Shown here piece after piece: positions 42,765 through 64,000 of a stretch of DNA of 64,000 bases. The notes beneath the pieces are model-generated. The model saw only the letters and a list, made by a program, of their open reading frames with translations. It did no database searches and was not told the DNA's origin. Each line of letters opens with the position of its first letter. Position 1 is the stretch's first letter. The stretch covers positions 1,472,001 through 1,536,000 of the forward strand of contig CBDCDZ010000004.1 in the NCBI GenBank assembly GCA_965215565.1. The letters run 5' to 3'. Source of the stretch: Trueperaceae bacterium. GTDB taxonomy: Bacteria > Deinococcota > Deinococci > Deinococcales > Trueperaceae. The translations under genes and the position numbers were made by a program.

Positions 42765-42842
42765 CTTGCTCCAAAGACAAAAGAGGTAAGAGGTGGAAAA
42801 CTAGTTTTCATCTCCAAGTTTCTCCTTTTCACTGAGGTGCGT

Positions 42843-46784: not shown

Positions 46785-47694
46785 GAGGGTGTTTGAGAAA
46801 TCCCCCCACCTATGTTTAGGTAGGGGGTGAATGGTACAGCGAAAGCAGTATACAACGGACATGAAAGAGAAAGAGTGGCGGTTGCTCGAGCCCTACTTAG
46901 CGAAACTGATGCCTGAGCCAAAACGAGGACGTAGAACAAGCTATAAGCTCAGGCGGCTGATTGACGCAGTACGCTACGTTTTGAGAAACGGCTGCACCTG
47001 GCGAGATTTGCCAGGGGATTTTCCCCCCGTGGCAGAGTGTGTACTATCACTTTGCAAAGTGGCGCACCACGGGCACTTCCTTCGGTCGCAAAGCAGGGTT
47101 GTGGCGCAAACTGAACAAGCATCTTAGACGCAAGCTGCGTAAGACGTTAGGACGCAACCAAGAGCCAAGTGCTGGTTGCGCGGATAGTCAATCAGTTAAA
47201 GCAGGTAGCTTGCACACCAACGGCTACGACGGTGCAAAAAGTATCAACGGTAGAAAAAGGCATCTACTTGTAGATACGCTTGGGCTGGTGCTAAGCGTGT
47301 TGGTGACGAAAGCGAATATGCCTGAACGCAAGGGGCTATCACGTCTGCTTCAGAAAAGTAGGTACGCGCTGCCGAGGCTTCACCATCTGTGGCTTGATAG
47401 GGGTTACAAGGGTATTGCCTTCGTTAAGCGCATCCTCTTGTGTTTCGGCGTGGTACTTGAGATTGTAGCGCGTCGCAACAGCAAACACTTTGGGCTACAA
47501 GCGAGACGTTGGGTTGTCGAGAGGACTTTTGCATGGCTCGGAAACTACCGCCGTCTCAGCAAAGACTATGAAACCCTTCCCTCATCAAGCGAGGCGTTCA
47601 TCTACCTGGCAAGCTGTGACCTCATGACTAAGCGTCTCGCTAAAACTAATCACGCGCCCTGGAGAAAGAGGTGAGTCTATTCCAAAACACCCTC
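46785..47694 (+). mobile_element. IS5-family insertion sequence (910 bp)
   Basis: Terminal inverted repeats GAGGGTGTTT / AAACACCCTC flanked by TA on both sides; internal DDE transposase. Confidence 0.92.
46831..47674 (+). CDS. IS5-family transposase split by a frameshift
   Basis: YTTD..W, GCTWRDLPGDFPP, then shifted WQSVYYHF, DSQSVK, GRKRHLLVDTLG, DRGY, RWVVERTFAWL; extra C in the C6 run at 47023-47028. Confidence 0.88.
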
Positions 47695-47764
47695 TAGCTA
47701 CAGAATTGGTAGCCGAGGTCGTTCCCGTCGATATATAGACCTGCTAGGAACTGTGGCCTGCACT

Positions 47765-49291: not shown

Positions 49292-52197
49292 GTCTTAGCC
49301 TCGTTTAGGTCCGAGCCCTCCTGCAAGATAACTAGGTTCGTTGGTACGGTCACCTCGAAGGGCTTTCCTACATCGACGGGACCTTCGGTTTGCCTCTGCT
49401 TTCTGAGGACAGAAGCCTCCAAGGATGCGATCAACAACTCGCGAAGGATGACGTTAGGTGGTTCGGACGTAAATAGCTCAGGCTTAAGTGAGCCTCCAGT
49501 CATCTGTAGCAGGCTGACAGCAGCAGCGGCGTAGAACTCGTGCCCAGGTCTGACCGGGAGGGTGACGTGTGCTGAGCCCGCTTGAAGAAACCTTCTATGT
49601 TCTGGGTCAGGATCGTCGGCTTTGAGAAGTTGGTCCCAACGATCCAGGTTCGCCCAGAAGTAGGGTGCTAGCTCGAAGACCATGTGCTCCCACTCAAAAG
49701 CCGTCTCGAAAAACCTGATGAGGGGTCCGTGTGCAGCGGCCTTCACGACGTCGGGGCTAAAGCCATCCTGGGCAAGTGAGCCCGTGTCGGGCTTGCTACC
49801 GCGTAATAAGGTGACCACGCCCCGCTTGATCTCGTCCCTCTCAACTTCTCGATTAGTAGTAGGGTTGCGCCCGTCGATGCTCGTCCCTTGCGCCACCTCT
49901 TCGGCAGCCAGCGCTTCTAGGTAGGCTGCCTGCCGCTGTCTGTACGCCTCCATGATGGCGGTATATACCTCGTAACGCCAGGTGTTCCAGGTCTCCTTTG
50001 TAGGTGTGCAGAGAGCCTCGATGACCAGGGGACCATGAGCGGCGGCGACTAAACCTACCGAGGAGAGATAATTGTGTTCTTCTGTCTCTAACGAAATAGC
50101 TGAAACATACAGGTCACCGCCTGCACCGTAGCGCTCTATAAGGTCAACAGCCCGACCCATTCCGGCCCGCACTTTGAAGCCACCCAGCATTTGACCAGTG
50201 CGGACGTAATCTGAACCATAAACTTTCACATGCTGCTCTGCCCCAACTTTCTCAGCTCTATGCTTGTCGAAAGATACAGCTATGGTCGTGTTGAAACCTA
50301 GGGAGGTGCCCCAGACTCTAAGCGCCTCGTAACCATCCGGAACCTTGAGTATGCCCTCATCCCAAGCGACCTGAACGCTCCGGATCGCGTCCGTATTCGA
50401 GTCGACGCGGCGGCTCACCTCGTCTCTCTCGAGGTTAGGCTCCTCGTCGAACTTAAGCGTCAGGGAGACTACCTTTTTCTCGGGAAGCGGTTCGACCGCG
50501 GCACCGTACCGGGCCGCGACGACGCGCCACAGATCGTTAATCGGATCGATATCGGATAGTTCGAGAGGTTTACCATTCACCCTCGGCGGCTCCGGCTTGT
50601 CCAGAACCAGCACCTGACCGACGGGTTGGCTGGCAATCCTGAGGAGATTAGCTCCTGGCTCAGGAAGGACAAACTCGAGCATTAGCCTAACACCATAGTT
50701 ACGAACCTGGACGCTGTAAACCTTATCGACATAGCGGTAGATTCCAACGGTGTGACCGTTAGCGTTCCGGTTGTCAATCTCGTGAGAGTTTGTCTCCTCG
50801 ACCGACTCCACTCGGCGGGTAAGGCGCTGCTCCCTAAAGGTACGCTGTATCCGGGCAGTTGCCAAGCTGGACACCGTTTTCGCGTATTCACTAGCGGTCG
50901 TGCTGACAGACTCACTAAACGTGGTTAAGGAAAAGTCAGCGTAGGTCTCTACGTTTACCGAGGGTCCGTAGCTCGCATCCAGCTTTAGGCCGGCACGCTT
51001 CTCGACCTCTGAGCGCTGCACGTCACGCGCTTCTCTCGTTAAACCAAATCTCTCTTCTGTCTGGAGTTCCTCCTCTGTAGCCTCAAGGATGCTTGTCTCC
51101 ACAAAGGTGACGTCCTCGCGTAGCGTATTTCTAATATGCTCCCTCACCCGGCGCTCGCCCTTAAGGGCGTTCTCGATGTGAGCAATCTCTCCTGCTTCGT
51201 ATCTCTTTAGGTCACGCTCCGCTACCTCGAGGTCAGAGACCTTAAACCCTTGAACGTAGCCCCCCTTGAATTCAGTGAGCGCTTGCGGTCCACTAGCGGA
51301 TGCGGTCGCACTCATCACAATCATCCCACTCCGGACCACAGGTGCACTCGCGGGAGCTACTGAGACCTCGGCATTAAGCAGCATTTGCCTATCGAGTTCA
51401 TTCACTGCCTCTGAAATGGATGTGTCAGCGCTGAGCTGAAGAGATTTTAGTTGGCTGACCTCAGTCTCCTTGAGGGGGACGTCACTGATAACTACAGTCT
51501 GCGGAGGTTCTGCTCTGCCGGGACTATCTCCGGTCGTGTCATCTTGAGGGAGACTTACATCTTGCATGAATCTTTGCTGCTGAAGTGTGAGTGTTGGGCT
51601 GGACGGACTTAAGCTTATCAGACGCCGCTTCAATGCCTGAAGCTGAACCAAGCTCGGGACCGGCGAATCTATTTCAAAAGTCTCAGGCTCAGACATTGTG
51701 TTGCTCTGTGGACCTGGCGCAAACTTAAGATTGAGGGGGAGGACGGGACGCTTGCCAGCTGCTTTACTGACGGCAAGTAGATACTTTACGGCCTGCTTCG
51801 ATGAACCTTGTTCACCTAGTATTAAATCGCTGGCTTCGCTAGCTGCTCCCCTAGCGAGGAGAGACTGGAAGGCCTCGCTAGCCACAACCTCTTGCGGGTC
51901 GCGCTCGAGGATGATGCTTGCCTCCTTAGCTACCTGCTCCTGAGGTGCGTGGGAATTTTGCTTTTGCCACTCGGCTAACGTTTTGTAATTGTCGGGCACG
52001 TCCTCAGGGTCTAGATACTCATCTGAAGCTTTGTTGCGCGTGGCAGCTCGTTCCGCCTCTTCGCGTGTTTTCGCCTCTCTAAGTTCTCTCATAGAAGGAG
52101 TTTCTCTATCCTCAGGGTTGAGGAGAACACCCAACTTCTCTAAAAAATTCTCGTCTGGTGGTCTGACGATGTGGAAACGGAAAACTTCTCTACCCAT
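49288..52197 (-). CDS. large hypothetical protein (YEAGEIAHIEN motif; possible beta-pore-forming fold)
   Basis: About 970-codon ORF, ATG 52197 after GGAGAAGG; Ser/Thr-rich central segment; no signal peptide seen. Confidence 0.8.
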   Translation of the reverse strand: MGREVFRFHIVRPPDENFLEKLGVLLNPEDRETPSMRELREAKTREEAERAATRNKASDEYLDPEDVPDNYKTLAEWQKQNSHAPQEQVAKEASIILERDPQEVVASEAFQSLLARGAASEASDLILGEQGSSKQAVKYLLAVSKAAGKRPVLPLNLKFAPGPQSNTMSEPETFEIDSPVPSLVQLQALKRRLISLSPSSPTLTLQQQRFMQDVSLPQDDTTGDSPGRAEPPQTVVISDVPLKETEVSQLKSLQLSADTSISEAVNELDRQMLLNAEVSVAPASAPVVRSGMIVMSATASASGPQALTEFKGGYVQGFKVSDLEVAERDLKRYEAGEIAHIENALKGERRVREHIRNTLREDVTFVETSILEATEEELQTEERFGLTREARDVQRSEVEKRAGLKLDASYGPSVNVETYADFSLTTFSESVSTTASEYAKTVSSLATARIQRTFREQRLTRRVESVEETNSHEIDNRNANGHTVGIYRYVDKVYSVQVRNYGVRLMLEFVLPEPGANLLRIASQPVGQVLVLDKPEPPRVNGKPLELSDIDPINDLWRVVAARYGAAVEPLPEKKVVSLTLKFDEEPNLERDEVSRRVDSNTDAIRSVQVAWDEGILKVPDGYEALRVWGTSLGFNTTIAVSFDKHRAEKVGAEQHVKVYGSDYVRTGQMLGGFKVRAGMGRAVDLIERYGAGGDLYVSAISLETEEHNYLSSVGLVAAAHGPLVIEALCTPTKETWNTWRYEVYTAIMEAYRQRQAAYLEALAAEEVAQGTSIDGRNPTTNREVERDEIKRGVVTLLRGSKPDTGSLAQDGFSPDVVKAAAHGPLIRFFETAFEWEHMVFELAPYFWANLDRWDQLLKADDPDPEHRRFLQAGSAHVTLPVRPGHEFYAAAAVSLLQMTGGSLKPELFTSEPPNVILRELLIASLEASVLRKQRQTEGPVDVGKPFEVTVPTNLVILQEGSDLNEAKT

Positions 52198-52512
52198 TGG
52201 ACCTTCTCCGCTCGGCAAGAACTATGCTTGTCTTCAAACCTTGGATGCCCAGAGTATACCATCATGTGGCTAAGTACAACCACAGGTATCTTTGTAGCCG
52301 AACTAGCGCTCAGCTGAGCTTCTTATGTGCCCTATCAACATAACACCACAAAGTGACGAGCAGTGGGTTTCACCGAAGTCCGAACGCACTCATTGAAATC
52401 CGTAGTTCTTTCTACTCGCTACGCTTGGGGTAATCCCTAGGGGAGTTACCCGAAAGCCGTATTACATCGTTATTCGACCTTCCCCTCAACCCTTCTTCAA
52501 CACACAAACCTA

Positions 52513-52544
52513 TTGTGCAGCAGACGCGCGCGTTCGTCGCACAA
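52513..52544. repeat. 32-bp boundary site 1
   Basis: TTGTGC-AGCAGAC-GCGCGC-GTTCGTC-GCACAA. Confidence 0.85.
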
Positions 52545-52594
52545 AAAGATAGGTTCCGTTCCTGTGCCCCTCTATACAAATGTTCAGTCCGAGC

Positions 52595-52629
52595 GAACAG
52601 GAGCGGTTCATAGCAGACCGCTCCTGTTC
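52595..52629 (-). terminator. 13-bp hairpin downstream of the phosphoesterase gene
   Basis: GAACAGGAGCGGT/ACCGCTCCTGTTC; no clear T-tract. Confidence 0.5.
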
Positions 52630-52661
52630 ACCTGATTCAGACAGAACGCCTCTGTTTGTCC

Positions 52662-54293
52662 CTACTCCCCGGCGACCTCGAAGACGCGCGTCGCCCGGAA
52701 GGTCTGAGCGTACTGGTCGGTCGTCTCTACGCGGACCTGGTGCACGCCGGGCGCTAGGTCGTCCGGCAGGGGTGCGGTCCAGATGTGCGACGAGTCGATA
52801 GGACCGGGCATCTCCTCGGGGAAACGCTCCTGCAGCTCGCTGATGTAGGGGGCGCCGCGCAGGGTGCGCTCCATCGTCCGCATCTCGCCCCCGTCGATCT
52901 GATAGCGGACGCTGGAAAGCTCGCTGCCGTTAAAGACGTTGGCGACGACTTGCGGTCCGGACCACTGCGCGGGGTCGAGGGTGTTGCCGTCCTGCTGCGC
53001 CTGGGCGACGCTGATGTTCATCTGATAGTCGGCGGCTTCGCCCGCCCCTTTGAGCCGCTCGCGGTAGGCGTTACCCTCAAAGGAGAGGACGTGATGACCG
53101 TTAGGCAGCCCGTCACGAGTGGTGGTGATGGGGATGCCGCGCTCGTCTTCGGGTCCGCCCCACCAGATACCCGAGAGGGTCGTCAGGGTGATGTGATGCA
53201 GCGGGTTGGGCGCTTGAAAGCCGTCTGCTTCGCCGAAGTAACTGTGCTCGGTCTTAGCGTGGACGTGGCCCGAGATGGAGAGCACCCGCTCGCGCCCCGC
53301 CAAGACCTCGAAGAGTGCCTCGCGGTCGGCGGTGTTGATGCCGGCGCTGTCTTCGCGCCCTTGGTCGATCAGGGGGATGTGCATGGCTAAGACGATGAGC
53401 TTGTCCTCCGGGACGAAGCGCAGGTCGTTCTCGAGCCAAGAGAGCTGCGCTTCGCCGATATACCCGCGGTAGCCGCCTGATTCGCCGTCCTCCACCCCGA
53501 AGTACTCGACGTTGTCCAATACCACAAAGTGCGCCTGCCCGTAATCGAACGAGTAGTAGGGCGGGCCGTAGACGCGCTTATAGGTCTCTAGCGAGTAGGC
53601 GTCGTCCGGCGACTGAAAGTTCAGGTCGTGGTTGCCCGGCACGTTCCAGAAGGGGACGCCAATCGTCGCGACGATCTGATTGTAGCGCTCGAACAGGGAC
53701 AGATCGTCGTACATGATGTCGCCGACGGTGATGCCGAAGGCGGCGTCCGTACCGACGATCTCCGTAATCACGTCGTCGCGGATGTAGTCGAGTTCGGTGT
53801 CGTCGCGGGGTTGTGGGTCAGCGAAGGCGAGCGCCTCAAACGGCTCATCCACCTCGGACGCTTGCAGCGGAAAGTCCACCGAGTCGGGCAGCGGACCTGT
53901 CGGCTCGATGCCGTCAAAGTCGAGGTCTAAGTCTTCGGGCGTGCCGTTAGGCTGGTGGATGTAGTAGAACTGCGGCAGCATCACCTCGTTCACCGGGACC
54001 ATGTAGCCAGCGGGTTTGGTGACGAACATGATTATCTCGTCACGAGCGGGCAGCTCATAGCGACCGCTATCGTCTGTTTGCACCACCTCGAGCCCGTTCG
54101 AGACTGACACGCCTGCGACCCCCGGTTCGCCTTCGTCGCGCTGCCGGTTCTCGTCGAGGTCGTGATAGACGACACCCGAAACGCTCTGCCCTGATGCCTG
54201 GGCACCGCCCGTTTCAGCGCCTCCGGTCTCTTGTGCCTGCCCAACCGTGAGCGCTAATAAGCTGGCGAATAACAGTTCTTTGATAGGTAGCAT
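52662..54293 (-). CDS. secreted calcineurin-like metallophosphoesterase
   Basis: Signal peptide; ADPQ, GD, GNHD, HIP, GHVH motifs; ATG 54293 after AGGAG. Confidence 0.88.
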   Translation of the reverse strand: MLPIKELLFASLLALTVGQAQETGGAETGGAQASGQSVSGVVYHDLDENRQRDEGEPGVAGVSVSNGLEVVQTDDSGRYELPARDEIIMFVTKPAGYMVPVNEVMLPQFYYIHQPNGTPEDLDLDFDGIEPTGPLPDSVDFPLQASEVDEPFEALAFADPQPRDDTELDYIRDDVITEIVGTDAAFGITVGDIMYDDLSLFERYNQIVATIGVPFWNVPGNHDLNFQSPDDAYSLETYKRVYGPPYYSFDYGQAHFVVLDNVEYFGVEDGESGGYRGYIGEAQLSWLENDLRFVPEDKLIVLAMHIPLIDQGREDSAGINTADREALFEVLAGRERVLSISGHVHAKTEHSYFGEADGFQAPNPLHHITLTTLSGIWWGGPEDERGIPITTTRDGLPNGHHVLSFEGNAYRERLKGAGEAADYQMNISVAQAQQDGNTLDPAQWSGPQVVANVFNGSELSSVRYQIDGGEMRTMERTLRGAPYISELQERFPEEMPGPIDSSHIWTAPLPDDLAPGVHQVRVETTDQYAQTFRATRVFEVAGE

Positions 54294-54428
54294 AAACCCT
54301 CTCCTCACTGCGTCATTGAGTGTCAGTCTAGCTACCGGTAGCTGAAGTGACCCTAGCAAGCCTATGTCAGAGGGGCGTAAGGGAACACTGTAGACACGCT
54401 GACAGACAAGTGGAAGCAGATTCAGCGC

Positions 54429-54460
54429 TTCTGCGACGAACGCGCGCGTCTCTCGCACAA
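54429..54460. repeat. 32-bp boundary site 2
   Basis: TTCTGC-GACGAAC-GCGCGC-GTCTCTC-GCACAA. Confidence 0.85.
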
Positions 54461-54717
54461 GACTTCAGCTATCTGGTCGCCGTAAATATGGTCCGCGCTG
54501 CTGAGCAACCGGCCTGACTCGAGCAGGTGCTCCGCCTTCAGCTACGTACTTGGCGTAGTTTTTGCTCACATAGACGATGTTTTCAAGTTCACACGGTGCA
54601 AGTAGCGTCACATCGGAGAGCATCACGGTAAGACTGCTGCGTTCAACCAGCAAATTTGTTAGAAGATAGACGGTGCTACCCTTCAATTCTCCCCAATTCA
54701 CGCCGTTTTCGTTAACG

Positions 54718-55899
54718 TCAGGTTTCTTCGTCTATAAAAAGTACATCGCGCACGAGACCGCGGCTGTCCGCCTGACCGCCAAGCGAACCTGCCAGGGTGC
54801 CGAACGCGGCGACGAACAGGCTCAGCTTGATATGGTCGAGCGTTCGCACCGCCGGGTCTACGGTCGGCCACGTCTCCATAAGTTGACGCGGAAAAATCGT
54901 AGCGACGCCCGTGTAGACGAGCGCGGCGAAGGCGGCAAAGATAAACAGCACCGTCAGCGTAAGGCTGAGCAGGATAGCCGCCCCGGTGACGACGCTCGAC
55001 TCGGCTAAACGTCGGCCCCTGCGCCGGGGTACGCCGAAAGCGAAGGCGCGGTAGAGCGCAAACGTTCCCACCGCTACGGACACACCCGCAAACAAGAAGA
55101 GCTGATACAGCTCGACGGTGCTCGCTACGTCCCACATCTCCGGGCTGAAAAACACGACGATGATAACCGACAGCGCTGCGGTAATCAGGGTGGGCAGGCG
55201 CGTCGCCAAACGCAGCGGGTTCGCCCTAGCTACAGCGTAAGCGATACTACGCCAGTCGCTCCGAAGCGTGCGCAGCACGAAACCCCAGCGGTTGCCCTGG
55301 CTCGTGCGCTCGTGCGCTTCACGTGGCAGGGCTAGGCGCACGTGGTTCCGCTGTTCGGGCGTCAGCGTCGCCATCGCGCCCAAATCGTCTACGCTTTCAA
55401 AATCGTACATCGCGTTGTGCGCCTCGTCCGAGTGCGGCAAGTTGAGAAGATGACCGAGCGTATGCAGCAGGAGGTGATTTAGGCGCTGCACGGTGAGCGC
55501 CTCGTCCGCTTCTTCCCCCCAAAAAGCGGGCTCGAGCCGCTTCGTCGAGATGACGCCGATGTTGGTCAGCTGACTCGGCAGGGCGAGGGTGTAAGAAAGT
55601 GTGGTGGCGGCGAGGTCGACTTCAGTGACGATGAGGAGAAAGTCGGCGTTACGCTCGAGTTTTTCGCTCACGCCGAGGCGCAGAAAGTCGAGCGGCGCGT
55701 AGGCTCCGGCGGTCGGGGTGAGGTGCGGTCCGTCGAAACGGAGTAGGTCAACACGCAGCCCTAGTTCGGTGCCAAGCGCCTTGTCAAACGCCGTCACCGC
55801 CTCGTTCGCCAGCCTCTCGAAACGCTCCGAGTGCTTGCCCTCCACGTCTATCGTCATCACACCGACGACGTACTCACGGCTCGAGGGGGTCTTAGACAT
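54718..55899 (-). CDS. membrane protein with zincin-like N-terminal domain
   Basis: HTLGHLLNLPH followed by AM (Met-turn-like); four C-terminal hydrophobic helices. Confidence 0.75.
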   Translation of the reverse strand: MSKTPSSREYVVGVMTIDVEGKHSERFERLANEAVTAFDKALGTELGLRVDLLRFDGPHLTPTAGAYAPLDFLRLGVSEKLERNADFLLIVTEVDLAATTLSYTLALPSQLTNIGVISTKRLEPAFWGEEADEALTVQRLNHLLLHTLGHLLNLPHSDEAHNAMYDFESVDDLGAMATLTPEQRNHVRLALPREAHERTSQGNRWGFVLRTLRSDWRSIAYAVARANPLRLATRLPTLITAALSVIIVVFFSPEMWDVASTVELYQLFLFAGVSVAVGTFALYRAFAFGVPRRRGRRLAESSVVTGAAILLSLTLTVLFIFAAFAALVYTGVATIFPRQLMETWPTVDPAVRTLDHIKLSLFVAAFGTLAGSLGGQADSRGLVRDVLFIDEET

Positions 55900-56321
55900 G
55901 GTTGCTCACTAAGCTGAGTATACGTGACGCGCCTGTGCCAGTTCGGGACAGTTCCCTCAATCAGAAAATTTCTTACGCTAAGGCAAGCTGCCCCGTTTAC
56001 AGCATTCGGTTCGTTTTGATCAGTTGTGTCGGGAACGTTCTACTTGTGAACTAGACACTCAAACCGTCCGAAGAGCAAAGACAGGGCAGCTACGCTTAGT
56101 GCAGCAAAGCTTATTCAGGACTCAACTTATTCGCTTACCGTTAATTTTTTCCAAGCAGGGAACTACCCCTATTTGCGATGTCCCTACGCGGAGAGATGTT
56201 CACTGAGAACTTGATACGGTGATGGAGCTACAACACGCTTGGCTGAATGGCGAGCAAGGGCACCGGATTAGCGGTTCAAGGACCACTAGCGCCCTTTTGC
56301 TTACTCAAGCTGCATAAGTCC

Positions 56322-56353
56322 TTCTGCAACAGTTGCGCGCGTCACACGCATAG
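56322..56353. repeat. 32-bp boundary site 3 (degenerate)
   Basis: TTCTGC-AACAGTT-GCGCGC-GTCACAC-GCATAG. Confidence 0.65.
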
Positions 56354-56477
56354 TGGTCCAATCGGTCTTGCCACAACCTCAGCCTCTTCTCCTGCGTGTA
56401 AGAATGCTGTGAGAGGGACGCTTCTACACTGATGGGACCTGGGCGCAACGGTGCGCCTTTAGGGAAGGGGTAGCGTC

Positions 56478-58487
56478 ATGTCCTGTTCGCACTGCCGCAC
56501 GATTCACAAACTGGAAGACGGGGGCAACGTCTTGCGCCTCGCTCACCCACTCGGTCATACGCGGCAGAAGCTGCGGCGCGCCCTAACAGAGCGCTACACA
56601 GTCACCGAGGTGAGTCAGGACGGCCTCAGCGTCACCGTGCCGCCGGGCTCGCTAGGTGAGTTGGCTAACCTGCTCGAGGGTAGTCTTAGCGCCGCCGAGC
56701 GCGAGAGCTGCCAAGCCTTGCTGCTAGCCGAAGGAGAAACGCCCAGCCTCGACAAGCTGTCACAAGTTCAACCTCTAACAGCGCTTCTCGCCAAGGTCCG
56801 CTCGGGCTGGCTCATCGACATGCTCCACGAGGACGCCTTCTACGCCGACTTCCAACCGATTGTATCGGCGGCAGAGCCAAGCCGCGCTTTTGCTTACGAA
56901 TGCCTGCTGCGCGGTCACGACGCACAGGGACAGGTCGTCCCACCAAGCCTAATCTTCGGGGCCGCGCGGAGCGCCGGGTTACTCTTCCACCTCGACCGCG
57001 CTGCCCGGCTGACTGCCATCCGCGACGCTCAGCGGCACGGGGTCGCCACACCTATCTTTATCAACTTCAACCCGACCTCGATCTACGACCCCGCCTTCTG
57101 CCTCAAGACGACCATCAAAGCGATCGAAGAGGCGCACATCTCAGCGGACCGGATCGTCTTCGAGGTGGTCGAAAGCGACGCCGTAGGCGACCCGGCACAC
57201 CTTCTCAACATTGTCCGCTTCTACCGCGAACAGGGCTTTCGCATTGCCATAGACGACTTCGGCGCGGGCTACAGCTCGATCAACCTCCTCACTCAGCTCA
57301 GACCGGACTTCGTCAAGTTCGACCGGGAGCTGATCCGCTTTATTGACCAGGAGCCCTACAAACAGAAGGTGCTGAGCAAGCTTATCGAGATGTCGCGCGA
57401 GCTAGGCGTGCGAACTCTCGGCGAGGGAGTCGAGCGGGAGGAGGAGTTTCTCTGGTTACGGGAGCGGGGCGTGGACCTTTTTCAAGGTTTCTTCTTCGCC
57501 AAGCCAGCCAGTCCGCCCGAGCAGCCGCAGGTCGTCCTCACCTTCGACAAACACCACTCGACATCACAGCTTGTACCGGAAGGGCTCGACATCGACCTCT
57601 CCTTCAGCTTAGACGACCGCTCGCTCCAGGGCGTGCTCGACTCGCTGAATGAGCAGGTCGCGGTGCTAGAGCGGAGCGGCAAGATCGTGATGGTCAACCG
57701 GGCGTGGCGTCAGGTCGGCGGCCTGGAGGCGCAAAACACCCGCTTTACCGGGGTTAATTACCTCGATGTCTGCCGCTTAGCGGTCGACACAGGTGATCAA
57801 GACGCCTTACGGAGCTACGAAGGAATACGCGGGGTATTGAGCGGTCAAGCGTCCGAATTCAGCCTCGAGTACCCTTGCGAAACGCCCCAGGGGAAGCGCT
57901 GGTTCCTAATGAAGGTGACGCCTTTAAGTGAGGGGCGCGGCGCGGTGGTACTGCACGTGGACATCACCGAGCGCAGGCAGCAGGAAGCGCAGGTCAACCA
58001 TCTCGCCAGCTTCGATCAACTTACGGGGGCGGCGAACCGCCACCATTTCTATGCGCAGGCTCAGCAGGTACTCAAGGAAGCTGAGCGTGAGATGCTCCCC
58101 TTCTCCCTGCTCTACCTCGACCTGGACGGCTTCAAAGGGATCAACGACCGCTTTGGCCACACTTGCGGCGATCAGCTTCTGCAACATGTGAGTGGGCGGC
58201 TACAGGGGCTGCTGCGCGAGGGTGACCTCTTAGCTCGTTTTGGCGGCGACGAGTTCGTGGTACTGCTGCGTGGTGTCTCCGGCGTTGACATCAACTCGGT
58301 CGCAGCGCGCTTCGGCCACACCCTCGAACAGCCCTTCGTAGTCAGCGAGCATACGTTCATCTGTAGCGGCAGCTTAGGCGCAGCCTCGTATCCAAAGCAG
58401 GGGCTTACGGTAGACGACCTCCTGCAGCGCGCGGACGAGGCAATGTACCAGACTAAGGCGCAGCGTAAGGCGAAAACTTCGGTGTAG
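56478..58487 (+). CDS. EAL-PAS-GGDEF c-di-GMP metabolism protein
   Basis: YECLLR, DDFGAGYS, EGVE; PAS ending DITE; RxxD (REGD) and GGDEF. Confidence 0.92.
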   Translation: MSCSHCRTIHKLEDGGNVLRLAHPLGHTRQKLRRALTERYTVTEVSQDGLSVTVPPGSLGELANLLEGSLSAAERESCQALLLAEGETPSLDKLSQVQPLTALLAKVRSGWLIDMLHEDAFYADFQPIVSAAEPSRAFAYECLLRGHDAQGQVVPPSLIFGAARSAGLLFHLDRAARLTAIRDAQRHGVATPIFINFNPTSIYDPAFCLKTTIKAIEEAHISADRIVFEVVESDAVGDPAHLLNIVRFYREQGFRIAIDDFGAGYSSINLLTQLRPDFVKFDRELIRFIDQEPYKQKVLSKLIEMSRELGVRTLGEGVEREEEFLWLRERGVDLFQGFFFAKPASPPEQPQVVLTFDKHHSTSQLVPEGLDIDLSFSLDDRSLQGVLDSLNEQVAVLERSGKIVMVNRAWRQVGGLEAQNTRFTGVNYLDVCRLAVDTGDQDALRSYEGIRGVLSGQASEFSLEYPCETPQGKRWFLMKVTPLSEGRGAVVLHVDITERRQQEAQVNHLASFDQLTGAANRHHFYAQAQQVLKEAEREMLPFSLLYLDLDGFKGINDRFGHTCGDQLLQHVSGRLQGLLREGDLLARFGGDEFVVLLRGVSGVDINSVAARFGHTLEQPFVVSEHTFICSGSLGAASYPKQGLTVDDLLQRADEAMYQTKAQRKAKTSV

Positions 58488-58529
58488 CTAGCTCCTTGCG
58501 AGGTCAGACAAGACGTTTGAGCCCTGCTT

Positions 58530-58561
58530 TTTTGCAACGAACGCGCGCGTTCGTTGCAAAA
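58530..58561. repeat. 32-bp boundary site 4 (perfect palindrome; may also terminate two convergent genes)
   Basis: TTTTGC-AACGAAC-GCGCGC-GTTCGTT-GCAAAA. Confidence 0.85.
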
Positions 58562-58591
58562 AGCTCAGAGTTTTTTGCTCTATACAACGCT

Positions 58592-59413
58592 CTAACTGCT
58601 AGACCGAAACCGAACTGCCGCCCCGCTCTCAGGCACCGTGTTGAGGTCACTCACCTTGCCCACGAGAAGCTTCTCCCCGACATGCATCATGAAGTGTTCG
58701 CCGCCCTGTCCTACGAAGGTGCCTTCGTAGAGTCGCCCCGGCTCGGTCGTGGCGAGGTAGCGCTCGTTCCAGTTGAAGGACTCGGACTCGAGAAAGGAGA
58801 TCGCCTCTCGCATCGGAGCGACACGCTCAGGGTCGCTGATCTCGTTCACGAGCCGCCGCATCATGTCGCGCTGCCCTCGCGAGGCTTCGATGCTCGCTAG
58901 AATCATCCGCTCGCGGCTCACAACGTCGAAGGTGAGGGTGTGACCCTCCGCTTTCGCCAGCGCTTCGACGAATACCCGCTGGGTGCGCCCGTTTCCCTCT
59001 CTAAAGGGGTGGAGTTGGTTGATGTCGCTGAGGAGGTTGGCGGCTCGTACAGAGAAGGTTGGGCGGTCTAAGCCTCGGTACTCGTCAACCTCCGATAGAG
59101 AGGTGAAGATGCGCTCGGCTTCATCCTCGAGTTCAGCGACGGGCGTGAACTGGTGCAGCGGCCCGCCTATCTGAGCGGCTTTGTAGAGTTCGGTGATGCG
59201 CGGCTCGCCGGCCCAGGAATAGATATCTTGGAAGAGGTAGTGATGCGTCGCCTTGAAGCGCGCGTAGGTGAAAGGACCTTGGGGACCGTCTTCCTCGACC
59301 GTTGCGAGCCGGTAGTCGGTAAAGTCCGCTTCGAGCTGGCTGAGCACTTGCGGATCGGTGACGCCTAGGTTGTTCTTGAGGGTGCCGTTCGGCTGAAGGT
59401 AGGGGTCACTCAC
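58592..59413 (-). CDS. Fic-domain toxin (VbhT/FicT-like) with C-terminal beta-rich domain
   Basis: Canonical HPFREGNGRTQR; N-terminal DPY..GTLKN; LFQDIYSWAG. Confidence 0.92.
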   Translation of the reverse strand: MSDPYLQPNGTLKNNLGVTDPQVLSQLEADFTDYRLATVEEDGPQGPFTYARFKATHHYLFQDIYSWAGEPRITELYKAAQIGGPLHQFTPVAELEDEAERIFTSLSEVDEYRGLDRPTFSVRAANLLSDINQLHPFREGNGRTQRVFVEALAKAEGHTLTFDVVSRERMILASIEASRGQRDMMRRLVNEISDPERVAPMREAISFLESESFNWNERYLATTEPGRLYEGTFVGQGGEHFMMHVGEKLLVGKVSDLNTVPESGAAVRFRSSS

Positions 59414-59609
59414 TCCGATTATGCAAGGCTCTGAGTTCGGCGAGCCAGGTCTTTTTGTCTATCTCTCCGCTGACCCACTTCGCTTTCAGCACCTGTGCCG
59501 CGTCAGAAGGGGTCAGCCCCTCCAGGCGTAGGTGGGCGGCAGCAGAGCGAGCAACCTCACGGCGGCGTTCTAGCTCGGCCGGGCTGAGCATCGGTGTCTT
59601 GACGGTCAT
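59406..59609 (-). CDS. VbhA/FicA-like antitoxin
   Basis: RLEG inhibitory motif; overlaps the Fic start; TATACT 6 nt upstream. Confidence 0.85.
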   Translation of the reverse strand: MTVKTPMLSPAELERRREVARSAAAHLRLEGLTPSDAAQVLKAKWVSGEIDKKTWLAELRALHNRSE

Positions 59610-59683
59610 ATGGCGAGTATACCACGGGCAGCGTCGCCCTGAAGGGCGTCTTTGGCATTGGAAACGGTTGCTTTAGGCGACGC

Positions 59684-59715
59684 TTCTGCGACAGACGTGC
59701 GCATTCGTCGCACAA
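59684..59715. repeat. 32-bp boundary site 5
   Basis: TTCTGC-GACAGAC-GTGCGC-ATTCGTC-GCACAA. Confidence 0.85.
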
Positions 59716-59829
59716 GGGCTAATCCCGACTAAGAGGAAGGGAGAGTTACCCCTGTCGCTCATCCCTACACTGTAGATGACAGCGCTCAGTAGTAGCGGCT
59801 ATCCTGCAGTGAGCCTTCGTTCAATTACT

Positions 59830-61668
59830 CTAAGCAGACGCAACGAGCGGCGCGCCCACCGCTGCCGAGGTCTCCTCAATGCGTACGCGGTTCACCGGTA
59901 CACGCAGCCGCTTGACTAGCTCTTTATCGTCGCCTTCAGGTTTTGACTTGTCCACTTTGTAGGCGGTGTATTCGCAGTAAGAGGCTGTGAACTCCACAGT
60001 GGCGTAGCCCCAGTCCTCGGAGTTGAAGAACTGGATGTGCGGGTTGGTTATGCGCACGAGGGTTTCTAACCCTTGCTGCTCCAACTGCTCGACCTCTTGC
60101 GGGCTCAAGCTCTGCGTTCCGAACGACTCGCCGAGCGAACCTCTGCCCCCACCTACCCCAATGAGTTCAGCAAAGTTCGCGGACGTGACTGCTGGCGTCA
60201 TGAATTCCACACCGACAAGGTTGCGCGGGTCAATGTTGAAGGGGTCTCTATCGTAGTCCACCTTGAGGTACGAGGCGATGTAGGTGTGCAGGTCGCCCGT
60301 CAGCACGACTAGGTTCTTCACGTTAGCCTCTTTCAGCTCTCGCATGATCCGCTCGCGTTCGGCTTCGTAGCCGTCCCAAGCGTCCAGGTTGAGGTAGAGC
60401 GCGGTCCCGTCGCCTAGCCCGACTTTGAGAGGTCCCTGAAAGACCTCGTTGCCCCACACCTTCCAGGTCGCCTCGGAATTTTCGATGCCGCTAAGGAGTC
60501 TATCGCGCTGCTGCGGCCCTAACATGCTGCGCTCCGGGTCATCCTGCTCGGGACAGCCCAGCGTGAAGTAGCGCTCGCCTACATCGCCGGTGCCGCAAGG
60601 GGGTGGATCGCGGTAGGAGCGTTCGTCGGTCATGAAGAGGTCCACGAGGTTACCGAAGGCGAGCTGGCGGCGAATGTCTAAAAACTGGCGCGGGTCGTCG
60701 GCGTTTTCTTGCAGAGTGACTCTCGCTGGCATATATTCTGCCCACGCCCGCCGCGCGTCGAAAGCGAGGCCGTTGCGCACCTCCCTAGATGCATCACCAT
60801 ACGGGTGGTCAGGCACGCCTACGCAGCCGTCCGCGTAGTCCCAGTAGCAGTCGTTGGCGGTCTCGTGGTCGTCCCAGATAGCGATGAGGGTGTGCTGCTC
60901 TAAGAGCTTTTGCAAAAAGCCGTCGCTTCGGTAGAGTTTGTAGATGAAACGGTAGTCCTCTAAGTTCAGCGCCGCTTCGCCGCCACTTGGCAAGGAAAAG
61001 GTGCGGTCTTCGAAGGGTTGACGCTGAAAGCGCGGGTCGCCCGAAGTCTCGTAGATGAAATCGCCTAGGTGGACGACGAAGTCCACGTCATCTTGGGCGA
61101 GCTGCGCCAAGGCCCCGTAATACCCATTGGTGTAGTCCTGACAAGTGATGACGCCCAACTTGAGGCGTTCGGTCTCCTCACCTCTTGCCGGAGCTGTGCG
61201 ACAACGTCCGACTTGGCTGCCCGTCTTCCGGTAGGCGAAGCGGTAGTAGAGGCGCGTATTGGGAGGCAGCTTGCCGTCTAGGTCCAACTTAACTGTGTAG
61301 TCGTTCTCCGGCCTGATGTCACTGCCCTTGACGCGACCTCTCGCCACGACATTTCTAAAGTCCGGGTCGCGCGCCACCTCGAAGGCGAGCTTCTTGTTCT
61401 TCTTATAGGCCGCTGGGTCGATGCGCGTCCAGAGCATCACGCCTGAGGGCGTGGGGTCGCCCGAAGCTACCGACAGGCTAAAGACTTCTTTCGGATCACG
61501 GTCTTTTTGGAGCGTCGCGAACTCGTCCGCGACGTCCTCATCTTCGCCACTAAAGGCAGGTACGCTTTCTAACTCGCTACACGCTGTGAGGATATAGGGC
61601 GTTGCCAACGCTAAACTCGTCACGCCCATCCGCTTCAGAAACGTCCGCCGGTCGAACTGCTCCATCAT
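59830..61668 (-). CDS. phoD: alkaline phosphatase D family protein (Tat lipoprotein)
   Basis: DRRTFLK Tat motif and LTAC; VASGDP, HLGDFIYE, WDDHE, DAWDGY, TGDLH. Confidence 0.92.
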   Translation of the reverse strand: MMEQFDRRTFLKRMGVTSLALATPYILTACSELESVPAFSGEDEDVADEFATLQKDRDPKEVFSLSVASGDPTPSGVMLWTRIDPAAYKKNKKLAFEVARDPDFRNVVARGRVKGSDIRPENDYTVKLDLDGKLPPNTRLYYRFAYRKTGSQVGRCRTAPARGEETERLKLGVITCQDYTNGYYGALAQLAQDDVDFVVHLGDFIYETSGDPRFQRQPFEDRTFSLPSGGEAALNLEDYRFIYKLYRSDGFLQKLLEQHTLIAIWDDHETANDCYWDYADGCVGVPDHPYGDASREVRNGLAFDARRAWAEYMPARVTLQENADDPRQFLDIRRQLAFGNLVDLFMTDERSYRDPPPCGTGDVGERYFTLGCPEQDDPERSMLGPQQRDRLLSGIENSEATWKVWGNEVFQGPLKVGLGDGTALYLNLDAWDGYEAERERIMRELKEANVKNLVVLTGDLHTYIASYLKVDYDRDPFNIDPRNLVGVEFMTPAVTSANFAELIGVGGGRGSLGESFGTQSLSPQEVEQLEQQGLETLVRITNPHIQFFNSEDWGYATVEFTASYCEYTAYKVDKSKPEGDDKELVKRLRVPVNRVRIEETSAAVGAPLVASA

Positions 61669-61766
61669 TCACCCCTCGAGCTGAAATTATTAGACTCTAC
61701 AGCGTGAGGTTCAGACGACTGTCAGGCGAGGTCTTCGACCTGGAGTTAGCTCTTGATGCAGTTTCG

Positions 61767-61798
61767 CTGTGCGTGAGTAGCGCGCAACTCACGCACAG
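61767..61798. repeat. 32-bp boundary site 6 (arms differ but remain complementary)
   Basis: CTGTGC-GTGAGTA-GCGCGC-AACTCAC-GCACAG. Confidence 0.7.
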
Positions 61799-61869
61799 CA
61801 CTAAATAACCACTTGAGTGTCGAAGCCGTAGCGTAGCGCCGCCGCAACGGTGCGGCGGCTCATCAGCCT

Positions 61870-62475
61870 TCACTTCGCACAGCCGTCGATCACTGTGCGC
61901 ACTGTGAACGCCGCCATCTCCGGGGCACTTTTCTCGTGAGCCTGGAGCAGCTCAGGGCGTGTGAGCGCCTCGAGCGCCGCGAGTAACAGTTCGACGACTA
62001 AAGGTGACGACAGGTCCGGGCGCAGTACGCCTTCTTGCTTGCCCTCTTCCAGAAGCAGGTTAAGTGTACGCCCCACCGTGTCTCGCCGGAACGTCACGAG
62101 GTAGTTCCACACCCGCGGCGCGTTGCGGCTGACGTCCTCTAAAGCCGACGCTTCGAGCCACCCCAGACGCACGTGCACGTTCTGCAAGAACCTCTCTAAC
62201 TTGCTGTGGAATGCTCCCTCGCCCTGAACAGTCTGCTCGATGTCTGCCTGAAAGCTTTCCAGATACTGCTCTAGCGCGTGTTGGAAAAGCGCCTCTTTAC
62301 TGCTGAAGTGCTCGTAGAGCGTCTTTTTACTGATGCGAAGCTCGCGGCTCAGCGCGTCCATCGGGACGTTACTATAGCCCTCGGTGAGAAAGCGCCGCAG
62401 CGCCAACGTTGAGATGCGCTGCGCGGTGTCGGCCTGAGGCGCTTTTGCTGCGTAGCTCGTGGTTTCAATCGTCAT
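61870..62475 (-). CDS. TetR/AcrR-family regulator
   Basis: ISKKTLYEHFSSKEALF HTH; start approximate. Confidence 0.88.
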   Translation of the reverse strand: MTIETTSYAAKAPQADTAQRISTLALRRFLTEGYSNVPMDALSRELRISKKTLYEHFSSKEALFQHALEQYLESFQADIEQTVQGEGAFHSKLERFLQNVHVRLGWLEASALEDVSRNAPRVWNYLVTFRRDTVGRTLNLLLEEGKQEGVLRPDLSSPLVVELLLAALEALTRPELLQAHEKSAPEMAAFTVRTVIDGCAK

Positions 62476-62501
62476 CGTATCCAAGTCTAACAAAAGTGAG
62501 T

Positions 62502-62891
62502 TTACGACCGCGACGCGCGCTTTCGCTCTGAGCCGGTCGCGAGTTCGCGCTTATGCGCAATGCCAACGAACGCCAAGAGCGCGAGCAGAACGGCGGGCGT
62601 CATCACCTTGTTCGCGGGGTCGTTGATTTTCGCGTGCGTGGCGACTGCCCCCGTCATGGTCGCGCTAAGTAAGACGCTTGCAAGCGGTGTCAGAGCAGGA
62701 CGAACAAAACCTAAGAGGAGTCCAAGCGCACCCCCCACCTCAACCGCGCCTGTCACCACGCGAAACCACTGCGGGTAGCGGAAACGGTCGAAGTCATCGA
62801 CCATGTCGTTCGCTCCCGCAAGCTTGGAGCCGCCCGAGCCTAGAAACATCAGTCCTAATAGTGTTTGTAAAATTCTTAGTGTCCACGTCAT
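62502..62891 (-). CDS. DoxX-family membrane protein
   Basis: G.SKL, YPQWF..TGAVE, MTGAVATH; ATG 62891 after AAGGAG. Confidence 0.85.
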   Translation of the reverse strand: MTWTLRILQTLLGLMFLGSGGSKLAGANDMVDDFDRFRYPQWFRVVTGAVEVGGALGLLLGFVRPALTPLASVLLSATMTGAVATHAKINDPANKVMTPAVLLALLAFVGIAHKRELATGSERKRASRS

Positions 62892-62934
62892 GAATCTGCT
62901 CCTTATCTTTGTCTTTTTGACTCGGGTCTTACTT

Positions 62935-64000
62935 TTAAGCATTCGTAGACGAGTTAATCCTCGAGGACGCCACGTCAGTCCGGCGCTGCACCCAGCGTTT
63001 CTGCACCTCTCCGAGTCCTCTCTGATACCCTTTGCGGTGGAACGCTAAGTAACCGTCTGGTCTAACCAGAAGCGCACTACCGTCTCTCGCCCCAAGCTTG
63101 TCTCTAAACAGGCGCGTGTAATCGGCGAGTATCGGTACGTCTCCCGCTTTAGGCGTGCCTTGCCCAAGGATGCCGAACACTCTAACGGCTTCCTCCGCTT
63201 CGGCTTGCACCTTGCGTCCTATCTCCGCGAGATACCCCGTGAGATCATCGCCCGCTCTCTCCGTACCGATAAAGATGAAGAGCGTGTAGCCAGGTCTCAA
63301 GAGGTCGAAAAGCCGTACGCGGTTCTCTTCGTCAGCACCAGCCCAGCCATGCGGCGCAGCGAGGGCGAGGTCCGGCACGCGGTCGCCCGCTCGGAGCGCA
63401 CCGGGATGGGGAATATCGCGTAAGTCCTGCTTGAGTTCGCCGCGCGCTCTGGCAGCGTCCTTGTAGCTGATACTGACGCCCGAAAGCCCTTCAGAGAGCG
63501 CTTTTTGTACCGGCAGACGGGGAACGAGGGTTTTGACCAGGAGTTCCCTCGCATTCCGCAGGGTGTTGTTGCGGATGATGAGGCTCCGCAAAATTTTGTC
63601 GCTCGTCTCTACGGCGCGTTTGCCAATAGGGTGACGTTCTTGCTCGTAGGTATCCAGGAGTGACGCGGGAGCCTGCCCGTTCACGACATAGGCAAGCTTC
63701 CAGCCCAGATTAAAGGCGTCTTGAATCCCTGTGTTCATCCCCTGCCCGCCCGCTGGACTATGCACGTGCGCGGCGTCACCTGCTAGAAAGACGTTGCCCC
63801 GGCGGTAGCGGTTCGCTTGGCGAATGCCTGAACCCCAGCGCGAGAGCCAGCGGGGTTCTAAGAGGGTCGGCTGCGTCGGAATCAGCGCGTTCACTGATTC
63901 CTGCATCGTCTCTTGCGCCAAGGGCTCCTTTGCCGACTCGTCTTGATACTTCCAATCGGCAGTCACGAAGCGGAAGTAGTCGTCCTTGAAGGGCACGATA
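62935..64000 (-). CDS. FAD-dependent monooxygenase (5' end outside the window)
   Basis: FLAGDAAHVHSPAGGQGMNTGIQDAFNLGWKL, LVRPDG. Confidence 0.9.
   Translation of the reverse strand, partial: IVPFKDDYFRFVTADWKYQDESAKEPLAQETMQESVNALIPTQPTLLEPRWLSRWGSGIRQANRYRRGNVFLAGDAAHVHSPAGGQGMNTGIQDAFNLGWKLAYVVNGQAPASLLDTYEQERHPIGKRAVETSDKILRSLIIRNNTLRNARELLVKTLVPRLPVQKALSEGLSGVSISYKDAARARGELKQDLRDIPHPGALRAGDRVPDLALAAPHGWAGADEENRVRLFDLLRPGYTLFIFIGTERAGDDLTGYLAEIGRKVQAEAEEAVRVFGILGQGTPKAGDVPILADYTRLFRDKLGARDGSALLVRPDGYLAFHRKGYQRGLGEVQKRWVQRRTDVASSRINSSTNA

Follow-up and report, generated by a model that had tools for sequence, protein, structure and literature searches.

A candidate gene-cassette system of Trueperaceae with 13-6-13 crossover sites and a self-mobile Xer-like tyrosine recombinase

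Comparison of an accessory gene array in a Trueperaceae genome with related genomes points to a self-mobile cassette system, in which a single recombinase would act on double-stranded DNA at sites of 13-6-13 geometry. A 296-aa tyrosine recombinase is the candidate actor. Based on the sequences, we give this reading a probability of about 80%.

The window, i.e. the whole stretch of 64,000 nucleotides that was analysed, was scanned with the 32-bp pattern (T/C)TnTGC-N7-G(C/T)GCGC-N7-GCAnA(A/G), allowing up to two mismatches. Twelve strand-matches were obtained, namely six sites read on both strands, whereas 100 shuffles of the window gave 0.58 on average and 6 at most; there was no further match elsewhere in the window. 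This agrees with the original prediction, which had placed sites at 52513, 54429, 56322, 58530, 59684 and 61767 and none in the first 52 kb. Each site was also claimed to have an intergenic gap of its own, which the gene calls bear out; the phosphoesterase gene has its called start at position 54293 of the window, which leaves site 2 outside. A seventh site is found at C4:1536778 on the same contig, about 780 bases (0.8 kb) beyond the window end. The six sites are as follows.

Site 1, 52513..52544, no strand assigned: 13-bp arm, core GCGCGC at 52526-52531, 13-bp arm
Site 2, 54429..54460, no strand assigned: core at 54442-54447
Site 3, 56322..56353, no strand assigned: core at 56335-56340, in a divergent gap
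Site 4, 58530..58561, no strand assigned: perfect palindrome, in a convergent gap
Site 5, 59684..59715, no strand assigned: variant core GTGCGC
Site 6, 61767..61798, no strand assigned: pattern match

The array lies in an island of about 40 kb. Its modules are listed below, headed by the core gene that borders the island on the left.

ileS-like core gene, 42690..46145, plus strand: left edge of the island, named from its translation
Module 0, 47693..52531, minus strand: 976-aa protein and patatin-like phospholipase; left site missing, with an IS5-like element adjoining
Module 1, 52526..54447, minus strand: calcineurin-like phosphoesterase (Pfam)
Module 2, 54442..56340, minus strand: 393-aa membrane protein with a zincin-like motif
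Module 3, 56335..58548, plus strand: EAL-PAS-GGDEF protein (Pfam)
Module 4, 58543..59702, minus strand: VbhA antitoxin and Fic toxin pair (Pfam; PADLOC PDC-S04)
Module 5, 59697..61785, minus strand: PhoD phosphatase (Pfam)
Module 6, 61780..64000, minus strand: TetR, DoxX and FAD monooxygenase (Pfam), running on to the seventh site outside the window

Pfam agreed with the predicted gene content for patatin, metallophosphoesterase, EAL-PAS-GGDEF, Fic with VbhA, PhoD, TetR, DoxX and FAD monooxygenase. The zincin-like label of the 393-aa protein holds as far as its HxxGHxxxxxH motif, the sole basis of the name; Pfam gave no match for this protein or for the 976-aa protein. Toxin-antitoxin genes are frequent among the module cargo. 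In two related genomes, G001 and G002, the ileS-like gene is followed by ruvC about 1 kb on (gene names read from translations), and no sites were found in the 20 kb examined at that locus.

Relatives of the window modules sit at unrelated loci in related genomes. Module 0 is 97% like G001:3432726-3437565, where both ends bear sites, module 1 is 95.7% like the site-bounded module G001:2674061-2675977, and module 2 is 98.2% like G001:847687-849580, which is also bracketed, there by sites of a second class. Module 4 is 97% like G001:2896520-2897645, and a single contig of run X1 spans 58541-59713. For module 5 the closest relatives were the site-bounded G002:C8:42509-44594 (88%) and G001:857596-859580 (90%). 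Module 6 has a second copy in the same genome (C4:28463-31474, 95%), and copies at other loci in G001 and G002. A module-length match to module 3 was absent from G001 and G002; G005 holds homologues of modules 2 and 3 without flanking sites, that of module 3 being 76% alike.

The joints at the single sites were followed in the same way. The left flank of site 1 was 96.5% like G001:3432715 and the right flank 98.5% like G001:2675977, two loci 0.76 Mb apart, and all three were aligned with each other. At site 2 the left flank, together with an arm identical at 13/13, matches G001:2674061, and the right flank matches G001:847687; contigs of runs X1 and X4 begin at 54442. The left flank of site 3 is 99% like G001:849580, and an X4 contig, from an independent strain, diverges at 56340, the end of the core, into a different arm. 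The right flank of site 4 is 98.5% like G001:2897644; there an insertion sequence has taken the place of the site. The right arm of site 5 is identical (13/13) to the arm of the same module at G002:C8:42509. At site 6 the left flank matches G002:C8:44594, and the right flank is 100% like C4:28462 of the same genome and also matches G001:225035, G001:4523029 and G002:C8:8401. The strain comparison was made from contigs only, in which no circular or inverted junction was seen; joints with short sides and runs with a small share were left out.

Among the compared genomes, of which the related ones are not independent of each other, the far side was unrelated in 71/71 homologous site-to-site flank pairs (at most 18 of 40 bases alike), and none of 11 neighbour pairs was still adjacent. 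As predicted, the module order is variable and the breakpoints are in the sites. Flanks were at least 99% alike in 16 pairs. Here the identity was 0.95 for the near arm and 0.60 for the far arm, with a background of 0.59; the drop, from 1.0 to 0.50, comes directly beyond the 6-bp core, at the first base. The near arm moves with the module and the site is split at the core between neighbours; the predicted 13-6-13 geometry fits this base-level breakpoint. The far arm had co-moved in two of these 16 pairs, and near arms were identical in only 16 of the 30 pairs with flanks at least 95% alike, i.e. arms change faster than flanks. Both observations suggest that some exchanges or conversions took place outside the core. 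A near full-length homologue elsewhere was found for 41 of 155 modules, some of them 100% identical inside one genome. There was no site at the expected place for 43 flank homologues, and several of those inspected hold insertion elements.

We propose that the 32-bp elements would serve a dedicated Xer-like tyrosine recombinase as its crossover sites. Each 13-bp arm would be bound by one subunit and, as in Cre/lox or Xer/dif, the strands of double-stranded DNA would be exchanged over the 6-bp core. A module would then be the DNA from core to core with one arm at either end. Modules could be excised, probably via circular intermediates, turned round and inserted again at any other site that has the same core, and arrays would grow wherever a site exists. 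Because GCGCGC reads identically on both strands, the palindromic core should make joining non-directional, and modules would be free in their orientation.

The predicted recombinase was located beyond the window, in the largest array of the genome. It is an Xer-like tyrosine recombinase of 296 aa (C4:389675-390565), itself lying between sites; a second copy (C4:381238-382143) has one internal TGA. R144, K168, H243, R246, H269 and Y278, the full six-residue catalytic set, are invariant in 30 aligned homologues. The enzyme consists of a core-binding and a catalytic domain and lacks an arm-binding domain, as in the simple Xer-related type, and a fold search gave XerD and XerA as the nearest structures and 14-15% identity to Cre. 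A site lies just upstream of six of the seven recombinase copies in G000 (this genome), G001, G002 and G005, and the gene for the recombinase forms a module of its own, in which a toxin-antitoxin pair is often included. Six tyrosine recombinases were found in G000, and none of the four intact-looking ones that were scanned reaches the XerC, XerD or XerA cut-off. A 251-aa recombinase that adjoins a Tn3 transposase was taken as its resolvase and set aside. A single chromosomal dif site was also considered; the GC skew was too flat to locate the terminus.

The original prediction had described the arms of site 6 as different and still complementary. As a general feature this did not hold: over 198 sites the arm complementarity was 7.77/13 as compared to 7.67/13 for randomly paired arms (p = 0.18), and the pairing of arm classes was random (chi-square p = 0.47). 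Such pairing is evidence against hairpins of the attC type, and also against a XerC/XerD asymmetry. We consider it most improbable that the sites recombine as folded single strands in an integron-like pathway. The missing excess of complementarity and the splitting of the site at the core speak against it, although eight of the 198 sites are near-perfect palindromes (at least 12/13 pairs; 4.8 expected) and some far arms travel with the module. Group II introns inside some arms would also suit such a pathway, as attC sites are said to host these introns. However, the 296-aa enzyme reached 108 bits with the integron-integrase profile TIGR02249 (cut-off 265) and 63 with NF011946 (cut-off 435), and its match to IntI4 covers residues 210-281 only (72 residues).

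Contradictions with an alternating (C/D-type) polarity model were found 17 times in 46 cycles, and 15 of 46 cycles contradict a direct-repeat model. An end-by-end polarity test found no cycles in the junction graph, so it has no bearing either way. There was no recurring junction between the compared genomes, and no fixed attI-like junction was seen.

Among 128 genomes of the family the 296-aa recombinase was found in seven, all seven with sites, and 118 genomes had neither. Sites without a close recombinase were found in three genomes, G054 (10 matches), G055 (5) and G024 (1); the first two have no recombinase homologue at E <= 1e-8 and G024 only a 27% match. With site matrices trained on site-bearing loci, related sites surrounded 12/12 Bacillaceae and 7/7 Trueperaceae loci of one recombinase clade (support 0.97), and 0/29 loci outside it. 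In the closest subclade, of Alicyclobacillus type, 2 of 14 loci passed the site matrix, a de novo palindrome search of these loci gave no site family, and a pooled matrix gave weak matches near control level, several of them with GGGCAG-type cores. Bacillaceae arrays consist mostly of single, co-oriented genes, whereas the orientation in Trueperaceae is mixed. Surveys of Bacillus cereus group repeats have been published. The pattern did not occur in a sample of 198 genomes that represent other families of the phylum, and exact matches at 3 viral and 25 metagenome-contig loci were isolated and belonged to no module family.

This distribution bears on the alternative that the sites are true tyrosine-recombinase crossover points served by another enzyme, for example a host Xer-type one as for dif modules, with the 296-aa recombinase as frequent cargo. 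G054 and G055, with sites and without the enzyme, would fit this, as would the many toxin-antitoxin genes that are likewise cargo. A 343-aa tyrosine recombinase, whose family is present in 97 of the 128 genomes, could be such an enzyme, but it was rejected as the actor since it is common in genomes without sites. Every genome with the 296-aa enzyme has sites, the site family tracks the clade of the enzyme into Bacillaceae, and the arms lack two-protein asymmetry. We therefore regard another enzyme as unlikely, and the 296-aa recombinase as the putative actor on these sites.

The site family has 39 members in this genome, clustered in accessory arrays, and genomes of the genus have from 39 to more than 78 sites each; most arrays are chromosomal and some sites are solitary. 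The core was GCGCGC in 176 of 199 sites and the 13-bp arm consensus is TT[G/C/A]TGC[G/A]NNN[G/A][A/T][C/T]. In the second site class, arms of the same type enclose a core that is asymmetric, CGGGCC (in G143, CGGCCC); this class would probably form a separate channel that does not cross-react. Had the sites been even among core genes, the predicted cassette array would have been in doubt; the clustering in accessory regions, the shuffled order, the core breakpoints and the tyrosine recombinase in an array support it.

We find it very unlikely that the sites are REP-like repeats or regulator operators whose breakpoints come from unspecific short-homology recombination or site-targeting insertion elements. 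Insertion sequences and introns do adjoin or interrupt some sites, and the few solitary sites would also fit such repeats. REP/BIME elements or operators are, however, expected among core genes or upstream, without breakpoints, which is not what was found. Exchange is fixed at the 6-bp core although different sites share only about 59% of the bases in their arms, and the island clustering goes together with co-occurrence with one recombinase clade. Gene 3' ends are favoured over 5' ends (206 vs 126), and 166 gaps were divided into 76 tandem, 65 convergent and 25 divergent, the split predicted by independent orientation from the observed share of gene ends. Rfam gave no family match at sites (5 loci). 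In a separate search the left end of a Tn7-like element was not found.

The sites and modules fit neither an integron nor a dif module. As in integrons, a tyrosine recombinase would reshuffle arrays of small accessory modules, toxin-antitoxin pairs are among the cargo, and some arrays have no enzyme nearby. Unlike integrons, they have no IntI, whose integron-specific insertion is noted in PMC8138268, and show no sign of hairpins; each site is divided between its two neighbours, the orientation is mixed in Trueperaceae and the enzyme gene is itself a cassette. The pdif modules of Acinetobacter Rep_3/OrfX plasmids are accessory modules, often toxin-antitoxin, between two-arm sites with a 6-bp spacer, and they are heavily shuffled (PMC13141974). 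Here too, toxin-antitoxin-rich accessory modules between 6-bp-spacer sites are shuffled across replicons. In pdif modules, sites with the same spacer react, distinct XerC and XerD arms are served by host XerC/XerD, and C and D modules are forced to alternate (PMC13141974); insertion elements gather at pdif sites (PMC10132070). In contrast, the arms here pair at random and are 13 bp long, the alternating model fails, one palindromic spacer dominates, most arrays are chromosomal, and the recombinase is a mobile module that scores below the XerC and XerD cut-offs. Dif modules were described as unique to Acinetobacter in PMC13141974.

Cre/loxP shares one recombinase, inverted 13-bp arms and a short central spacer. 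According to PMC8762395, natural loxP is asymmetric, loxPsym, voxsym and roxsym are synthetic, and the palindromic loxPsym spacer of SCRaMbLE allows deletion and inversion alike. Here, in contrast, a natural symmetric 6-bp spacer goes with degenerate arms, dozens of sites per genome and an Xer-like enzyme. In Rhizobium etli a single tyrosine recombinase, IntA, acts in both directions on attA/attD, a palindromic site with a central region; this site differs in being 23 bp long, present in two copies on two plasmids and used in cointegration, and no cassette arrays are described in the text seen of PMC4928290. Our literature search, with most subscription journals outside it, found no description of the sites or the enzyme, and the gene-shuffling system is apparently undescribed.

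The system of Trueperaceae, which has a related form in Bacillaceae, would have an enzyme and sites of its own, and there is evidence at base resolution that its modules have moved. It would be unusual to meet a symmetric spacer in nature, as the non-directional sites treated in PMC8762395 are synthetic. A candidate enzyme-site pair is named, for which a simple plasmid assay is possible; if the enzyme tolerates degenerate 13-bp arms and separates the spacer classes, it may be of practical use as a tool. With the help of the arrays, accessory and defence genes can also be picked out for study, much as with chromosomal integrons. On balance we lean slightly towards a third kind of gene cassette beside integrons and dif modules, common to Bacillota and Deinococcota, with a self-mobile Xer-like recombinase, lox-like double-stranded sites and spacer classes that would serve as address channels. 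In this Trueperaceae genus the palindromic spacer may have taken over, which would make it a natural counterpart of SCRaMbLE, with dozens of sites and orientation-free shuffling of accessory genes.

The six 32-bp sites placed in the window by the original prediction were all recovered at exactly the predicted positions and on both strands when their pattern was searched with up to two mismatches, and no further match was found in the window at this threshold. Shuffled versions of the window gave a mean of 0.58 pattern matches and never reached 12. One site in each intergenic gap, with unrelated genes on either side, held for all six. Scanning with a weight matrix gave 33 chromosomal sites above 16 bits, as compared to none in a 2 Mb order-5 Markov control, and a refined matrix found 39 sites in the whole genome (G000; contigs C4 and C2), in which the window spans C4:1472001-1536000. 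The sites were clustered, and a tyrosine recombinase was found inside the largest array.

C4:1536778, seventh site, the next after the window's right end
C4 26-51 kb, cluster of 6 sites
C4 373-429 kb, largest array, 15 sites
C4 1524-1537 kb, window array, 7 sites
C4 770 kb and C4 1267-1277 kb, one pair of sites each
G000, two single sites
C2 (50-kb contig), 5 sites

In the related genomes G001, G002 and G005 at least 78, 64 and 18 sites were counted, respectively, as lower bounds from the stretches around known matches. The core was GCGCGC in 176 of 199 sites, and 4 of 198 (one overlapping match dropped) lay within predicted reading frames.

Taking a module as the stretch from one core to the next, six of the seven window modules were matched in G001 at 3.43, 2.67, 0.85, 2.90, 0.86 and 0.22 Mb, and most of these matches ended in or near sites. 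The EAL module had no module-length match there. In a four-genome comparison, homologous 200-bp flanks that both abutted a site formed 71 pairs, and in all 71 the sequence past the site was unrelated. For 43 further flank homologues the expected place had no site; several of those inspected had an insertion sequence or group II intron there. Where flanks were at least 99% alike (16 pairs), the near arm was 0.95 identical and the core 0.94-1.0, as compared to 0.60 for the far arm against a background of 0.59. Identity fell at the first base past the core, which fixes the geometry as 13-6-13, as had been proposed. Near arms diverged beyond their flanks, being identical in just 16 of 30 pairs with flanks at least 95% alike, and the far arm was carried along in 2 of the 16 near-identical pairs; conversion or junction migration past the core may explain this. 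Contigs from public runs of two other studies had their start exactly at core 2's first base, and one followed the window through the last base of core 3 and then passed into another arm. A contig start by itself can be explained as an assembly break at a repeat, whereas this loose end past core 3 cannot.

A near full-length homologue elsewhere was found for 41 of 155 modules, and 27 of 50 such homologues were bounded by sites at both ends. Identical copies within a genome indicate duplication besides movement. Module order varied among the relatives, none of 11 neighbour pairs being still adjacent elsewhere, and breakpoints lay in sites. The reading of the array as recombinase-assembled cassettes is therefore supported by the core breakpoints, the reshuffled order and the array-borne recombinase, and the 32-bp elements are very probably site-specific crossover points.

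Group II intron-like elements were also seen inside site arms, after position 11, in G001 (C1:2672083, L049:12083) and G002 (C8:734507 and 742214, L078:4507 and 12214). One of them carried a 574-aa reverse-transcriptase-like ORF, judged by translation. IS630-like elements and a short repeat lay directly beside arms in G001. These insertions are reminiscent of elements targeting attC or pdif sites.

The recombinase had been predicted to lie beyond the window, and two copies of one 296-aa protein were found inside the largest array, among six tyrosine-recombinase matches in G000. The intact copy (C4:389675-390565) was flanked by sites at 389577 and 391473; the other contained one TGA. All six catalytic residues were invariant across 30 aligned homologues. 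The nearest solved structures were XerD and archaeal XerA (model pLDDT 85), but the enzyme did not reach the curated thresholds for XerC, XerD, XerA, XerS or integron integrases. In four genomes a site lay directly upstream of 6 of 7 enzyme copies, and in most cases the module also held a toxin-antitoxin pair or YhcG-like gene. Named records of recombinases 81-90% identical to the enzyme were from Trueperaceae, which makes this the most likely family of the host. Among 128 family genomes, which are kin so that co-occurrence is no statistical test, the enzyme was found in 7, all with sites, and neither was found in 118. The remaining three had sites without the enzyme (10 in G054, 5 in G055 and 1 in G024). 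They leave room for a different enzyme acting on the sites, and they also fit with the recombinase being an excisable module itself. The 296-aa enzyme probably acts on double-stranded sites as a crossover recombinase.

Arm complementarity within a site was 7.77 as compared to 7.67 for random pairs (p = 0.18), and pairing between inner arm-end classes was random (p = 0.47). These results speak against attC-like folded substrates and against a pair of distinct subunits. The genes flanking 166 gaps were 76 tandem, 65 convergent and 25 divergent; as 3' ends made up 206 of 332 gene ends, independence would give about 78, 64 and 24. Arrangement of all array sites in direct repeat was contradicted in 15 of 46 cycles, and alternating polarity in 17 of 46. 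As the junction graph had no cycles, a fixed polarity of each module end may still hold, so freedom of orientation would follow from the palindromic core and from knowledge of loxPsym (PMC8762395).

An arms-only scan revealed a second class of sites, whose core is asymmetric and in most cases CGGGCC (CGGCCC in the genome G143). Its matrix gave 40 sites; in the reversed-chromosome control none exceeded 19 bits and 3 exceeded 15 bits. Eighteen lay 35-36 bp off a first-class site, and all 18 pointed at it. Such double sites flanked both sides of the recombinase module in G002 and of window module 2's copy in G001. In G005 an 859-bp stretch ending in a first-class site on one side and a second-class site on the other was present twice, and small modules bordered by both classes were found in G054, G055 and the locus L098. 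The classes may work as distinct channels, or such sites may provide accessory binding and thereby steer the reaction.

Modules had a median length of 2.1 kb, and their cargo was accessory: toxin-antitoxin pairs, phosphatases, GGDEF/EAL proteins, regulators and hydrolases. An island of roughly 40 kb bounded by ileS and ruvC holds the window array; G001 and G002 have about 1 kb between the two genes and zero sites within the 20 kb fetched. Several observations were made on individual genes. An RloB-like gene (window 46214-47674) was cut in two by an IS5-like element with its own transposase in two frames. A 976-aa protein without a match in Pfam or PADLOC precedes a patatin-like phospholipase (window 47765-52218); the two travel together within a single module and may form a defence system. 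The seventh site is followed by a four-gene block (C4:1536859-1539536, L018:6859-9536) that had copies of about 80% at C4:2997-3000 kb, adjoining a site, and at C4:3700-3703 kb, where no site was found. The second copy of the TetR-DoxX-monooxygenase module, with its monooxygenase called as two pieces, was followed by an ISAs1-like element (C4:31517-32837, L017:13517-14837).

The island's right part, outside the window, held a candidate type I-E CRISPR-associated transposon (C4:1548886-1558017, L218:3886-13017), ordered TnsA, split TnsB pieces, TniB, Cse1, Cse2, Cas7, Cas5, Cas6, one repeat-spacer-atypical repeat unit, TniQ and a transposon-like end inside the 5' part of ruvC. Cas3 was absent among the ORFs scanned there, and a left end was looked for and not found. 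The best other match of the unit's spacer in the genome was ruvC (26/33), about 38 bp from the transposon-like end. A second Tn7-like set of TnsA, TnsB, TniB and TniQ (C4:3019304-3024474, L221:11304-16474) ends beside a second-class site, with a first-class site 19 kb away.

Alicyclobacillus and its relatives carry homologues 52-62% identical to the enzyme; those of Bacillaceae and Paenibacillus are about 40-44% identical, and some in Bacillus are plasmid-borne. A motif-blind de novo palindrome search found arrays of related sites around the Bacillaceae homologues; their arms read TT[A/C/G]TT[C/G/A]AAC[T/A]A[A/T][C/A], and their 6-7 bp cores are GC-rich (e.g. CTGCCC, GCACCC; symmetric GCATGC in locus L163). 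Such sites occurred in 16 of 73 non-Trueperaceae loci and in none of the reversed controls, and matches were clustered genome-wide. The genes that they divide are small and mostly co-oriented, and the recombinase gene itself spans site to site (95% identical between L121 and L127). In a tree of 65 recombinases, sites were confined to one clade (support 0.97); excluding loci with short matches and near-duplicates, they were found there in 12/12 Bacillaceae, 7/7 Trueperaceae and 2/14 Alicyclobacillus-type loci, and outside it in 0/29. Bacillaceae arrays frequently carry paired sites that are spaced 45-64 bp and differ in core (L141, L143, L163, L118), and these resemble the 35-bp Trueperaceae double sites. 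In Salipaludibacillus (L144:1702-14369) a second palindrome family, with GCGCAA in the arms and an AT-rich centre, lay about 12 bp past several Bacillaceae-type sites.

Most alike in mode of working are dif modules, described as accessory genes set apart by Xer sites whose spacers are 6 bp long (PMC13141974); in contrast, here there is no XerC/XerD asymmetry and no alternation. Integrons are alike in outcome, but no IntI (PMC8138268), hairpin or common orientation is present here. The system thus belongs to neither. Cre/lox is nearest in site design, with a like spacer in synthetic loxPsym, and IntA of Rhizobium etli is a single bidirectional enzyme with two 23-bp sites (PMC4928290). The literature searched, which left out most subscription journals, held no description of these sites or the enzyme. 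There is a fair case for a recombinase-driven cassette system in a class of its own, and we put the probability of a distinct, orientation-free system spanning two phyla at roughly 0.55.
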